From NCBI GenBank assembly GCA_910587785.1, contig CAJUOA010000003.1, positions 32,044-96,043 on the forward strand: a DNA stretch of 64,000 nt, written 5' to 3'. The notes under the pieces were generated by a model, which was given only the letters and a program-made list of their open reading frames with translations, ran no database searches and had not been told where the DNA came from. The stretch is from an uncultured Oscillospiraceae bacterium. Its GTDB lineage: Bacteria > Bacillota > Clostridia > Oscillospirales > Oscillospiraceae. Shown here piece after piece: positions 21,717-27,867 of this stretch (its first letter is position 1; every line of letters begins with the position of its first letter). The position numbers were made by a program, and so were the translations under genes.

Positions 21717-24700
21717 TTGAACTGGAGAAAACGACTGACGGCGGCTCTTCTGAGCCTTGCCATGGCGCTCTCCCTCTTCGCCCCGTGGCCGCAGACGGCC
21801 CGTGCGGCGGGGACGGGGGCCGCGGGCTCTATCGGCCTGACCGTCCGCTTTGACCTGCCCCAGACCCGCGCGGCGGTGGAAGGGCGCGGCGTCAAGCTGA
21901 CCCTCACGCGGGGCACGGAGCGGCTGGAGCTCCCCCTTGCCGCAGGCACGGCGGTACGCAACGACTTCCAGGCCCCGGTGTCTGTGAAGGCGAAGAACAT
22001 CGACGGCGTGGAGATGACCACCGAGGCCCGGCTGGGGTACTACCAGGCGGAGGTCTCCGGCTTGGCCCAGGGGACTTACCGGCTGGAGGTGACCGGCACG
22101 GGCTACGTGCCCTACTCCGCTGACGTCACCCTGGACAGCTACTCCCGCCACGTCATCACCGGCACCGGGGACGGCACCTTCGCCCTGGGCGACGTCAACG
22201 GCGACGGCGTTCTGGACGAGCAGGACCTTACATATCTGGAGGCCCGCCTGGGCGGCGCACCGGAGGGCTGCGACCTCAACGGCGACGGCGCGGTGGATGT
22301 GACGGACCTCGCCTATGTCAACTACATTCTGAATGAGCACGGCTCGGCGCAGGTCCTGGAGACCGGGGCCATCACCGTCCCCGTGGTGGAGACGGCGGGC
22401 CTCATCTTCCGCTCCGGCACTGCGCAGCAGCTCTTTACCGGCACGGAATCCGTCACCATTGCGCCCGCAGCGGCGGGGGACGATCTGGTGCTCCCCATCG
22501 AACTGCCTGCGGCGGTGGAGATGGAGCGCATCGAGATCACCTGCCCGGACGGCATGGGAGCCCTGGAGACCGGCGCTGCCACGGTGGAGACGGAGGACGG
22601 GCGCACGTTTGACGTCCCCTTTGACATCAGCACCCCCGCCGGGGTCTACGCCATCGGCCCGACCGCCGGGGAGCGGGTGGTGACCATCGACCTGGGCCGC
22701 CGGGTGGCGGTGAAGAAGGTCACCATCCATGTGACCCGTGTGGCCGGGCAGGCCGGCGCCAAGCCGGAGTATGCCACAGTGACCCAGATCGAATTCCTCA
22801 AGGACATCGTGCCGGAGAACCCCAAGACGGACGACCAGGTGATGAACCTCTCCGCCAAGGCGGGGGACGGCATGGTGGAACTCGCCTGGAGCGCGGTGCG
22901 CAACGTCACCGGCTACAAGGTGGCCTACGGCGAGAGCGCGGATCACCTGGACCGGACCCTGCCGGTGGTGAGCAACAAGGCGTCTGTCACGGGGCTGGAG
23001 AATCTGACCACCTACTATTTCCAGGTAACAGCCACCAACGGCGCTTGGCGCGGCAGGCCGTCGGCCATTGTCTCCGCCATGCCCGAGGCCGCCAAGGTGC
23101 CCGGCGCACCCTCCAACATCGGGGTGGTGCCCATGGACGGAGCACTGCGCCTGAGCTGGGGCAAGACCAAGGACGCCACGTTCTATCAGGCGTTCTACCG
23201 CGTGGCCGGGGAGACGGAGTTCACCCAGTTCGGCGGCGACTTGAGCGCGACCAGCACCACCATCACGGGCCTGACCAACGGCACGGAATATGAGCTCGCC
23301 GTGAAGGCCGGAAACAGCAAGGGCGTGGGACCCTTCTCCGCGATCGCCGCCGGTACGCCGGAGCGGGAGGACCTGACGATGCCGGAGCTGCCAACGGATG
23401 GACGGATCGACAGCAGTATGGTGGAGTCCATCGTGCTGAAAGACCCGAGTAATGTCGACAGGAAGCTGTGTCCCAACTTTGTCACAGACCACCTCATCGA
23501 CAATGACGCTTCCACATACTGGATCGCTGGGAGCTGGAGCAAAAACAGCCATATCACTTATACATTTAGCGAACCTGCGGATATGAACTATGTGATCTTG
23601 GTTCCATATCTGGGGGATAACCATAAGTATGCGCTGAATACCTATAGGATCGATGCTGTAGACGAAAATGGCGTCCAGATACTCGAAGAGACTCTATATG
23701 CAGCTCCACGGATGACGGATAAAAATTATCTGATCCTGCCCTTTGACGCGGTGAAAGGTGTCAAGAGCCTGACAGTACAGCTCAACGAGCGGGAGGGGAA
23801 CGGTTTCCGAGTGAGCGCATCGGAGATGGCTTTCTACAAGAGCGACAGCCTGCCGGACGATATCCTCGCCCTCTTCACAGATGAGACCTTGACCGAAATA
23901 AGGACCGGCGTGAGCGAAGGAGACATCACCGCGTTGGAGGAACGTTTGGCGGAAAAAGAGAGCTTCTTCCTGGATGTTGACCTTCTGAGACAGGAACTTG
24001 AGCTGGCAAAAAAGCTCTTGGCAGACCCCAGCGCTCTGGGGCTCGTGAAGAACGATTTCCAGAGCCGCAGCGGCAGAGCGGACAGCACATACGGTCAGAG
24101 CGCAAGCGACCTCCAGCCTCTGGGCATCTCCGCCGAGGCCGGATCGACGGTGGCAATCTACGCCCAGCTTCCGGAGGGTGAGACAGTCTCCATCGTCCCC
24201 ACTCAGTACTACGGAGAATCCGGCATCTGGAGAGGGACCTCCGTTCAGCTGCGGAACGGGCGCAACTATATCGACATTCCCAAGATCGGTAGCTTGACCG
24301 ATCCCCGGGGCGGCCCGCTCTACGTGACCTACTCCGGCGAGCATCCGGAGCAGATCAAACTCCATGTGCTCCCCAACGAGAAAGCAGCCATCATCCCCGT
24401 CCTGGAGCTCTCCAACTGGTACAGCACGGACGGAGTTGCCCAGCGTGCCGCCATCAGCGCCTACGTGACGGCGCTGGAGGCCCACGTGGCAAAGAATGGG
24501 ACGAATCCCGAGACCAACGTCTTCAACACCACGGAGATTTCCACGCCCAGCGTCCTGCTGAGCCTGCCCGCAAACAAGATTCTGGACGGGCTTGGTACCG
24601 ATAACAAGGTTGAGACCATGTACCAGAACATCCTCGCCTGGGAGGAGACACTTTTCGTTGCCAACAAGGTCCAGGGGATTATCGGCTCTGCTGATACGCT

Positions 24701-26496: not shown

Positions 26497-27867
26497 ATGA
26501 AAACGACGAAAAAAGTACTGTCCCTGCTCCTTGCGGTGGTGCTGACGCTGATGCTGTCAGTCCCGGCCCTCGCGGCGGGTGAGCCGAAGCTGGACGTCAC
26601 CGCCGACGCCTCCGGCGTGCGCCTGACGGTCAGCGGCCTTGCCTCGGACTGTCAGGGCCTCCAGTTCACCATGCGGCTGGACCGCGCCGCAAGCGAGGTG
26701 GACCTGACCTTCAGCGCCGCCCTGGACGAACCGGGCATCCGCACCGCAAAAAGCTCCAGCGGCACGGCAATGACGGTCTACATCGCCTCCAAGAGCGCCG
26801 CCCTGGGCGAGGGCGGGAGCCTGGACCTGGGCGCGCTCAGCGCCCTTGCGGCGGGGAGCACCCTCACCAGCGCCGCCGTGTCCTCCGTCTCCGGCTGGAA
26901 GCTCCTGCGCTCAGGAGACTTTACGGAGGAGACCTTTGGGCCGTCACCCTCTACGCCGCCTGTGAATCCCCCCGACTGGTGGCCGGGTCCCGGTTCAGAT
27001 GAGAGCAGCGGCGGCAGTACGGCCCCCGCGCCCACCCGGTACCGGGTGGAGGCGGCCTCGGGCATCACGGGCGGCAAGATCCAGCTGAGCGCCTCCCAGG
27101 CGGCGGCGGGGGACCAGGTGACGGTCACCGCCCTGCCGGATACCGGCTATGTGGTGGACCGGGTCACCGCCTCCGGCGGCGGCAGAGACCTTGTCCTGAC
27201 CGATCTGGGCGGCAACCGCTACAGCTTTGCCATGCCCAACGCCAATGTGACCGTCCAGGCGCTCTTCGCCGTCCTGCCGGAGGATAAGCCGGTCCAGCCC
27301 CAGCCCCCGGCGGCAGAACTGCCCTTTGTGGACGTGGCCCCGGACGCCTGGTACCGGGAGGCGGTGGAGTACGTCTACCGCATGGGGCTCATGAACGGCA
27401 TGAGCGCGACAGCTTTTGTGCCCAACGGAACCACTACCCGGGCCCAGATCGTGACCATCCTCCACCGGCTGGAGGGCACTCCCGCCGCCTCCGGCGCGGG
27501 CTTTACCGACGTACCGGCGGGGCAGTGGTACGCCCCGGCTATCAACTGGGCCGCCTCCAACGCCATTGTGGACGGCTACGGCGGCGGGAAGTTCGGCCCC
27601 GACGACCAGATCACCCGGGAGCAGATGGCCGCTATCCTGTACCGCTACGCCCAGTACAAGGGCTACAGCACCAGCGCCCTGGGGGACCTCTCCCTGTTCT
27701 CCGACGGGGATCAGGTCTCCGGCTGGGCCCGGGGCCCCATGGTCTGGGCCAACGGGAGCGGCCTCATCAACGGCAAGAGCGGCGGCGTCCTGGACCCCCA
27801 GGGCCACGCCACCCGCGCGGAGGCGGCCGCCATCCTCATGCGCTTCTGCGAAAATCTGGCCCAATAA
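26497..27867 (+). CDS. S-layer-homology (SLH) anchored protein with an N-terminal cohesin-like module
   Basis: Signal peptide, then an all-beta module at 26578-26916, a Pro-rich linker and an Ig-like repeat. Three SLH repeats follow (FVDVAPDAWY.., FTDVPAGQWY.., LFSDGDQVSGWA..) at 27325-27864. Confidence 0.8.
   Translation: MKTTKKVLSLLLAVVLTLMLSVPALAAGEPKLDVTADASGVRLTVSGLASDCQGLQFTMRLDRAASEVDLTFSAALDEPGIRTAKSSSGTAMTVYIASKSAALGEGGSLDLGALSALAAGSTLTSAAVSSVSGWKLLRSGDFTEETFGPSPSTPPVNPPDWWPGPGSDESSGGSTAPAPTRYRVEAASGITGGKIQLSASQAAAGDQVTVTALPDTGYVVDRVTASGGGRDLVLTDLGGNRYSFAMPNANVTVQALFAVLPEDKPVQPQPPAAELPFVDVAPDAWYREAVEYVYRMGLMNGMSATAFVPNGTTTRAQIVTILHRLEGTPAASGAGFTDVPAGQWYAPAINWAASNAIVDGYGGGKFGPDDQITREQMAAILYRYAQYKGYSTSALGDLSLFSDGDQVSGWARGPMVWANGSGLINGKSGGVLDPQGHATRAEAAAILMRFCENLAQ

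Follow-up and report, generated by a model that had tools for sequence, protein, structure and literature searches.

We analysed a 64-kb window of DNA from one uncultured Oscillospiraceae genome (the window, below, is this whole stretch) and found a two-gene operon that pairs a secreted M60-like peptidase, the enzyme, with a secreted protein carrying S-layer homology (SLH) repeats, the anchor, whose counterparts in other genomes we call partners. The enzyme has an X-module and a dockerin (together, XDoc) close to its N-terminus, and the anchor opens with a small beta-rich module, the head. We infer that the enzyme is probably displayed on the cell by a one-to-one, type-II-like docking of its XDoc onto this head. 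An initial annotation, made from the sequence, had read the locus as a dockerin-bearing M60-like protease next to a cohesin-like, SLH-anchored protein. Both open reading frames (ORFs) on which that reading was built are present, at 21717-26486 and 26497-27867 on the + strand (Table 1).

The enzyme is a predicted ZmpB-like O-glycopeptidase

The family of the enzyme and its active site are strongly supported. Peptidase_M60 (PF13402) of Pfam matched aa 981-1184 with 64.5 bits (cut-off 25.8), in agreement with the M60-like reading of the initial annotation, and the zincin site that it had placed at 24882-24896 was confirmed as HEIGH inside this match. Together with a downstream glutamate it makes up a gluzincin site of the form HEXXH...E (H1056-E-I-G-H1060 and E1069). 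The motif HEIGHNMDKLG[KR]AE, or a variant of it differing in one residue, was present in 112 of 113 full-length orthologues. The closest solved relative was Clostridium perfringens ZmpB (7jfs, E 1e-40, aa 591-1288), and other ZmpB, ZmpC and ZmpA structures also matched (5kdj, 3e-37; 6xsz, 2e-27; 6xsx, 1e-18). The catalytic construct of ZmpB (5kdn) aligned with aa 797-1288 at an E-value of 2e-32, and further PF13402 metallopeptidase structures (5kd2, 5kd5, 7sci and 7yx8) were detected as well. Its sequence places the enzyme among the M60-like gluzincins of the ZmpA/B/C type, with an intact active site, and its predicted activity, given a strongly supported family, is that of a mucin-type O-glycopeptidase.

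At E ≤1e-20, 1440 proteins were related to the enzyme. The best 120 of these are all ∼1600 aa long and share the same architecture; none of them is fused to an anchor, as a 'Rosetta stone' relative would be. The modules that had been described as FN3-like and discoidin-like were borne out to different degrees: two fn3 domains are present, whereas F5_F8_type_C stayed below its cut-off and the discoidin-like stretch aligned with the family 32 carbohydrate-binding module (CBM32) of ZmpB. Conservation extends through the C-terminal region of the enzyme to the last residues in all relatives.

The dockerin forms a predicted dyad with an X-module

The two EF-hand-like loops in which the initial annotation had recognised a dockerin near the N-terminus are both present (DVNGDGVLDEQD at 22191-22226 and DLNGDGAVDVTD at 22272-22307). 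A six-frame translation of the whole window contains no second pair of this kind, and one protein of the window carries a dockerin. Dockerin_1 (PF00404) matched aa 157-203 above its Pfam cut-off (27.1 against 22.9 bits), and a precomputed PF00404 assignment accompanies most of the best 120 of the 1440 enzyme relatives. Across 113 orthologues, the positions of the Ca ligands (D/N at 1, 3, 5, 9 and 12) are conserved at 76-100%, and dockerin segment 2 (D186...Y200) is almost invariant, whereas the helix of segment 1 is variable. By sequence, the nearest solved dockerin was that of C. perfringens NagH (2jnk/2ozn, E 6e-5).

For aa 28-216, an AlphaFold2 (AF2) model based on 31 orthologues reached a mean predicted local distance difference test score (pLDDT) of 92.3 and a predicted template modelling score (pTM) of 0.87; in this model, a beta-sandwich precedes the two dockerin helices. 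In a Foldseek comparison with the PDB, ranks 1-10 were all type-II X-module-dockerin dyads, including 4u3s_B, 5k39_B, 4wi0_B, 5m0y_B, 3kcp_A, 2b59_B, 5g5d_B and 4fl4 (ScaA, CipA and CipB with type-II cohesins). These matches had E-values of 1.7e-7 to 2.5e-5, with ∼180 of 189 residues aligned and template modelling scores (TM-scores) of 0.55-0.61 on the target, and all matches below rank 10 had E-values above 2e-3. The fold is thereby strongly supported, and the model portrays the dockerin as the second half of a rigid type-II-like XDoc dyad. The dockerin of the initial annotation therefore stands, and its character as a plain, free-standing module does not. In Clostridium thermocellum, XDoc modules bind cohesins of SLH-anchored proteins.

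The partner carries a conserved N-terminal head

All features that had been noticed in the anchor were recovered, namely a signal peptide, a beta module, a Pro-rich linker, an Ig-like repeat, which corresponds to Flg_new_2, and three SLH repeats. The SLH repeats match the SLH domains of Sap and SbsB in the PDB and strongly support an attachment to the wall. In characterised proteins such repeats bind pyruvylated secondary cell-wall polymer; no csaB was found among the scanned proteins of the window. The exact anchor sequence is deposited at NCBI as MCI9055703.1, 'hypothetical protein [Oscillospiraceae bacterium]', and occurs on 424 contigs. The Flg_new_2 repeat is missing from the orthologous anchors of four loci (L002, L003, L009 and L011).

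No Pfam family matched aa 27-150 of the anchor. In an exhaustive HMMER search, 16 representatives among 1.84 billion proteins matched the head, which is 115-123 aa long; word-indexed protein searches with the head or its alignment returned 2-3 fragments only. Two apparent cases of tandem heads (P0004 and P0009) were rejected as spurious matches to repeat proteins, P0004 having PKD repeats, and tandem copies occur in none of the 14 true relatives. In every genuine relative examined, the head directly follows the signal peptide, and SLH repeats were found in all eight relatives scanned with Pfam.

An AF2 model of the head, built on 16 sequences (pLDDT 88.3, pTM 0.81), has nine strands and is confidently modelled as a jelly roll of the CBM2/CBM3/cohesin class. 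Conserved polar or aromatic residues lie on strand 3 (Q30 and T32), strand 6 (T67 and Y69) and strand 8 (S106 and K109), where they alternate with fully hydrophobic positions; those at Q30, T32, T67, Y69 and K109 are invariant. Provided that the topology of the head is cohesin-like, strands 3, 6 and 8 would be part of the 8-3-6-5 sheet with which cohesins bind dockerins.

Enzyme and partner are inherited together

In 16 genome loci from Oscillospiraceae metagenome-assembled genomes (MAGs), at ∼55-57% identity, the partner gene lies directly downstream of the enzyme gene in all 15 loci that reach far enough. Similarly, in eight further loci found via distant partners, an orthologous enzyme ends just upstream in every case (8/8). 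A scan of metagenomes yielded 80 loci with 29-94% identity and 28-67% GC. Here, X-module and dockerin were present in every enzyme for which the contig includes the N-terminus (68/68; the X-module was detected with a hidden Markov model of the family), and a head-bearing partner was found in 69 of the 70 loci with downstream DNA. Overall, the partner adjoins the enzyme in 92 of 93 testable loci. At the sole partnerless locus (L103:51-2147), the enzyme is cut ∼70 aa early and continues in frame into a HisKA/HATPase histidine kinase, and this is either a chimeric contig or a genomic rearrangement. Conservation of the gene pair in related genomes, which the initial annotation had put forward as a check, is thus observed without exception in intact loci; with loci spanning 28-67% GC, the cassette is not confined to high-GC Clostridia.

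The head, in turn, was only found next to this type of enzyme among the relatives examined, and the cassette occurs in mouse-gut MAG catalogues and human-gut metagenomes. The flanking genes of the window (hybrid kinase, solute-binding protein (SBP), TetR and MMPL) are not syntenic with the cassette; they were therefore rejected as parts of the system, and enzyme and partner make up a self-contained cassette. Because the pairing is strict across divergent loci with non-syntenic flanks, it argues for a direct functional link between the two genes. Of the cassette's parts, the head diverges fastest: in a set of 17 pairs, its mean distance is 0.52, whereas that of the M60 domain is 0.27.

The tails of the partners vary. 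Three SLH repeats were found in 52 of them, and 11 end differently. A human-gut group of ∼43% GC and a 28%-GC group have a C-terminal transmembrane helix and a basic tail; these partners (L073, L078, L097 and L098, e.g. L073:7904-9358; L100 and L101, 7726-8559) consist of the head, a long low-complexity stalk and the transmembrane helix, and their C-termini read ...VVILFGAVIAFLFVRVANKRRA or ...IVLIVLSGGVILIYNFKKRKA. One partner has a FIVAR-like domain and a hydrophobic C-terminus. In three others (L082:7814-9844, L083:7850-9643 and L084:7865-10138; 598, 677 and 758 aa), the head is followed by tandem Cys-rich repeats with paired C-x-x-C, which vary in number, and by two Big_2 domains. To judge by these sequences, the head-XDoc pair is constant and the anchoring device interchangeable, and a constant head on exchangeable anchors would, by analogy, follow the logic of anchoring scaffoldins.

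A separate observation concerns the locus L055 (6558-7775), in which the first head strands run straight into a solute-binding protein (SBP_bac_8). In the window, an SBP lipoprotein gene lies immediately upstream of the enzyme gene (20269-21552). A rearrangement, an error of assembly or mere chance could each lie behind the head-SBP junction of L055.

Proposed docking of XDoc onto the head and alternative explanations

In the arrangement that we favour, both proteins, which carry Sec signal peptides, would be exported, and the partner would be fixed to the wall by its three SLH repeats. The XDoc dyad would then plug, in a Ca-dependent manner, into the jelly-roll head of the SLH partner. The likely contact surface is the sheet with Q30, T32, T67, Y69 and K109, whose counterpart in the cohesin topology binds dockerins; we infer both the physical contact between XDoc and head and the surfaces involved. 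A long fn3 stalk would hold the catalytic and glycan-binding modules away from the wall, and the surface-held enzyme would cut O-glycosylated proteins of the host in the vicinity of the cell. The outcome would be a monovalent, cell-bound O-glycopeptidase. We are evenly divided on a further proposal, namely that the heads constitute a new family of miniaturised XDoc receptors, each dedicated to a single mucin O-glycopeptidase and portable between SLH, membrane-helix and other anchors, which no current cohesin model recognises and which would be either extremely diverged cohesins or an independent jelly roll.

Several results weigh against docking onto a cohesin-like head. Pfam Cohesin (PF00963) did not match the full-length anchor at E ≤1, any of 16 family members at E ≤10 or any of 10 distant partners at E ≤1. 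Profiles of the head (A3 and A7) matched no cohesin among the PDB sequences, and hhalign gave a probability of 0.1-0.2% for the head against verified CipA cohesins, a set that does not include type-II and X82 cohesins. Foldseek returned no match at E ≤1e-3 for the head model; its list comprised CBM2, chitin-binding domains, YcnI, CBM3 and cohesins, of which CBM2, chitin-binding domains and YcnI match the fold as well as the cohesins do. For the three partners with Cys-rich repeats (L082-L084), no SLH, transmembrane or sortase signal was visible. Furthermore, the co-evolution tests are not robust. In a mirror-tree analysis of 17 pairs, the residual correlation with the head was highest for X-module and dockerin (0.48 and 0.46), whereas in 49 non-redundant pairs the C-terminal region of the enzyme came first (0.37), ahead of the dockerin (0.25) and the X-module (∼0), and also had the largest coefficient in a multiple regression.

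Cohesins nevertheless account for 14 of the 50 top fold matches of the head, SdbA (2bm3) among them, and for its highest query-normalised TM-scores (5nrk, 0.59; among C. perfringens cohesins, 2jh2 with 0.56, 2vo8 with 0.55 and 2o4e with 0.52). In the model, the head is by fold no closer to cohesins than to CBM2, and it is best described as cohesin-shaped, cohesin membership not being demonstrable. What the initial annotation had called a cohesin-like N-module thus kept its jelly-roll fold of the cohesin class in AF2 and Foldseek and lost the expected profile match in Pfam, PDB profile and hhalign searches. Two other readings of the head were rejected. Copper binding of the YcnI type requires a histidine brace, and the head has no N-terminal His, the mature proteins of close relatives starting with AGEP.. 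or ..APW..; a module for crystalline polysaccharides was dismissed as there is no aromatic strip.

One rival idea is that the head is a ligand module of the CBM2 or chitin-binding type, for glycans or some other host ligand, and the partner a mucus adhesin; XDoc would bind another receptor, such as a canonical cohesin encoded elsewhere, and the two proteins would work together without contact. The best Foldseek E-values of the head belong to CBM2 (6qfs, 1.6e-3, and 1exg), chitin-binding domains reach a target-normalised TM-score of 0.57, none of the sequence tests gave a cohesin signal, and co-transcription of an adhesin with a mucinase would explain the strict pairing as well. We consider this idea unlikely, however, as the head shows no aromatic platform like that exposed by CBM2, CBM3 and chitin-binding modules, Y69 being its only invariant aromatic residue across the broad family. 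An adhesin would also leave the XDoc, kept in 68/68 enzymes, without a partner, and an N-terminal head that sits on interchangeable anchors and occurs only beside the enzyme speaks more for a dedicated receptor than for a general lectin. The shift of the co-evolution signal to the C-terminal region of the enzyme in the 49 pairs would instead point to tethering by the partner via another part, likeliest aa ∼1295-1589, in which case XDoc might serve enzyme-enzyme or S-layer contacts. This region is without an assigned function, is conserved to its end and had the highest partial correlation with the head, but its coding region is adjacent to that of the head, and a shared recombination history could mimic such a signal. 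Among the 17 pairs, X-module and dockerin ranked above it, the only characterised role of XDoc is the binding of jelly-roll cohesins of anchoring proteins, and we know of no precedent for tethering via a C-terminal region of this kind; tethering by this route therefore seems distinctly improbable to us.

To our knowledge, many non-cellulosomal dockerins are without a known partner, and one could imagine a freely released enzyme whose XDoc, stabilised by Ca, has a structural or adhesive role, the SLH protein being an unrelated wall protein that merely shares the operon. A pairing that is kept in 92 of 93 loci between 28 and 67% GC and down to 29% identity, with flanks that are not syntenic, would be hard to account for without a functional link, and the near-invariance of dockerin segment 2 is as expected of an interaction surface, which makes an enzyme that does not dock at all a very remote prospect. 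Docking of XDoc onto the head is the explanation that we retain.

Relation to known cohesin-dockerin systems

The type-II cohesin/XDoc complexes of C. thermocellum and Acetivibrio cellulolyticus (2b59, 3kcp, 4fl4, 5k39, 5g5d, 5m0y and 4u3s) provide the only strong fold match of the enzyme's XDoc dyad. Resemblance extends to the anchor, which has the layout of SdbA, i.e. signal peptide, one jelly-roll head, linker and three SLH repeats, and the proposed attachment to the wall is likewise the same. The XDoc of CipA, which pairs with SdbA, OlpB and Orf2p, is located C-terminally on a scaffoldin, whereas here it is N-terminal on a catalytic subunit, and the cargo of the cellulosome is a multi-enzyme scaffoldin rather than a single peptidase. 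Type-II cohesins comprise roughly 160 aa; the head, in contrast to the cellulosomal type-II receptors, has ∼115 aa and is without detectable cohesin sequence similarity.

In C. perfringens, the NagH dockerin and NagJ cohesin (X82; 2ozn, 2jnk, 2o4e, 2jh2 and 2vo8) come closest in dockerin sequence, with the same short linker between the segments, and X82 cohesins of this species rank high among the structures that the head resembles in fold (TM-scores 0.52-0.56). Both systems share a context of host glycoconjugate degradation in a gut Clostridium. However, the C. perfringens cohesin-dockerin pairs have neither an SLH anchor protein nor an X-module dyad; cohesin and dockerin are both carried by enzymes, which they link pairwise (PMC12997984). 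The ZmpA/B/C proteins of C. perfringens have the same catalytic domain, HEXXH...E site and preceding CBM32-like module as the enzyme, whereas only the cassette family has an N-terminal XDoc, an extra domain, a pair of fn3 domains and a dedicated proposed surface receptor encoded in the same operon. ZmpA/B/C are not among the dockerin proteins listed for C. perfringens (PMC12997984).

A 'mucinolysome' has been described in Limousia (Acutalibacteraceae; Gut Microbes 2026), with dockerin-bearing mucin-degrading enzymes, including six peptidases, that are proposed to assemble on cell-anchored cohesin proteins (PMC12997984). The cassette resembles it in purpose. In Limousia, however, Pfam recognises scaffoldins with several cohesins each, the dockerin enzymes are numerous and the anchor is of the sortase (LPxTG) type, whereas the cassette combines one enzyme with one proposed monovalent receptor in one operon, anchored by SLH or transmembrane tails. 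As regards a multi-cohesin scaffoldin, the partner is single-headed and the window encodes one dockerin protein. Neither M60 nor SLH is mentioned in the text of that study or in the accessible portion of its supplements (PMC12997984). A table from 2012 lists, as rare combinations that were not analysed further there, M60-like together with Dockerin_1 in two proteins and M60-like together with SLH in one (PMC3267712); the latter, an M60-like protein with fused SLH, counts in favour of docking and is the only fusion evidence. We found no description of the cassette in the literature on M60/ZmpB and dockerin, on XDoc and SLH, or on Oscillospiraceae and dockerin or mucin. The novelty that the initial annotation had claimed is narrowed by the 2012 table, with its M60-like proteins carrying Dockerin_1 or SLH, and by the dockerin peptidases of Limousia.

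Implications of the proposed surface display

M60-like O-glycopeptidases cut the protein backbone of mucin, and this cleavage controls access to the host mucus layer. Tethering through XDoc, if it occurs, would localise mucin cleavage at the bacterial surface, which bears on nutrient capture and on the effects of commensals on barrier integrity. In cellulosomes, type-II XDoc interactions are among the mechanically strongest protein pairs. The cassette is widespread in gut Clostridia, yet both of its genes are annotated as hypothetical, and the proposed receptor escapes the Pfam Cohesin model by which cellulosome-like and mucinolysome systems are defined, including the cohesin plus dockerin screen of PMC12997984. 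If our interpretation is correct, Pfam-based censuses of cohesins and dockerins would systematically miss surface display of this kind, and part of the 'orphan dockerin' problem in gut Firmicutes could be explained by cryptic receptors encoded next door. As a pair of small domains with named residues, XDoc and head offer a test case for the ligands of non-cellulosomal dockerins.

Organisation of the locus

The two genes form a self-contained operon, which is strongly supported and extends, as read from the sequence, from a candidate promoter at 21645 to a hairpin ending at 27918 (Table 1). The exact TTGACA-17-TATAAT promoter reported by the initial annotation is present at 21645-21673. It is the single site of its kind observed in 21400-28100, where shuffled sequence leads one to expect 1.3, and the consensus match on its own is not significant. 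The intergenic spacer between enzyme and anchor measures 10 nt and contains a GGAGG; as this ribosome-binding site directly abuts the stop codon of the enzyme, the arrangement suggests that the two genes are co-transcribed and their translation coupled. The hairpin downstream of the anchor is a probable terminator, and a simple terminator scan did not call it.

Table 1. Features of the enzyme-anchor operon; coordinates refer to the 64-kb window
Feature	Coordinates	Strand	Description
Candidate sigma-70-type promoter, TTGACA-17-TATAAT	21645..21673	+	12/12 consensus match; predicted from sequence
Ribosome-binding site AAAGGAAG	21702..21709	+	7 nt upstream of the enzyme TTG start; read from sequence
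Enzyme gene	21717..26486	+	ORF, 1589 aa, TTG start; predicted secreted XDoc-bearing M60-like O-glycopeptidase
Enzyme signal peptide, aa 1-30	21717..21806	+	...TARA/AG; from translation, n-h-c pattern and AxA site (inferred)
X-module, aa ∼37-148	21825..22160	+	N-terminal beta-sandwich packed against the dockerin in the AF2 model
Dockerin, aa 150-212	22164..22352	+	Two Ca-binding loops, each followed by a helix; Pfam Dockerin_1
Domain 'D3', aa 215-365	22359..22811	+	No Pfam/NCBIfam family; conserved in orthologues
Two fibronectin type III domains, aa ∼372-560	22830..23396	+	Pfam fn3, 66.1 bits, two stretches
Discoidin/CBM32-like domain, aa ∼575-720	23439..23876	+	F5_F8_type_C 19.6 bits, below cut-off; aligns with ZmpB 7jfs from aa 591
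M60-like peptidase region, aa ∼797-1290	24105..25586	+	HEIGH at 24882-24896; Glu1069
C-terminal beta-rich region, aa ∼1295-1589	25599..26483	+	No family match
GGAGG ribosome-binding site of the anchor gene	26487..26491	+	Abuts the enzyme TAA stop; 5 nt before the anchor ATG
Anchor gene	26497..27867	+	ORF, 456 aa; secreted SLH protein with N-terminal cohesin-shaped head (predicted)
Anchor signal peptide, aa 1-26	26497..26574	+	...PALA/AG; read from translation
N-module (head), aa 27-149	26575..26943	+	Nine-stranded jelly roll in the AF2 model; proposed XDoc receptor
Pro/Ser/Gly-rich linker, aa ∼150-185	26944..27051	+	From translation; length differs among orthologues
InlB-type B-repeat (Flg_new_2), aa 188-258	27058..27270	+	Pfam, 47 bits; facultative
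Three SLH repeats, aa ∼276-450	27322..27846	+	Predicted cell-wall anchor; Pfam SLH, 122.6 bits, three stretches
GC-rich hairpin 3' of the anchor stop, weak U-tract	27882..27918	+	dG -37.4 kcal/mol, z -6.1 against shuffles; probable terminator

Other features of the window

Very long antisense ORFs that overlap the real genes (17524-21696, 21711-23624 and 23694-25595, all on the - strand and up to 1390 aa) failed a GC3/GC2 test and were rejected as artefacts of high GC content. Downstream of the operon, 27993-33307 encodes a TetR regulator, an MMPL-family transporter and an ORF with a weak Mce4_CUP1-like match, which are not syntenic with the cassette elsewhere. At 15129-17432, one ORF fuses LytB/IspH with four S1 RNA-binding domains. 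Finally, in a 1250-aa protein at 58316-62068, a HAAS domain at the N-terminus is joined to a MacB-like periplasmic core and to an FtsX permease domain, an unusual sensor-permease architecture that is unrelated to the cassette.

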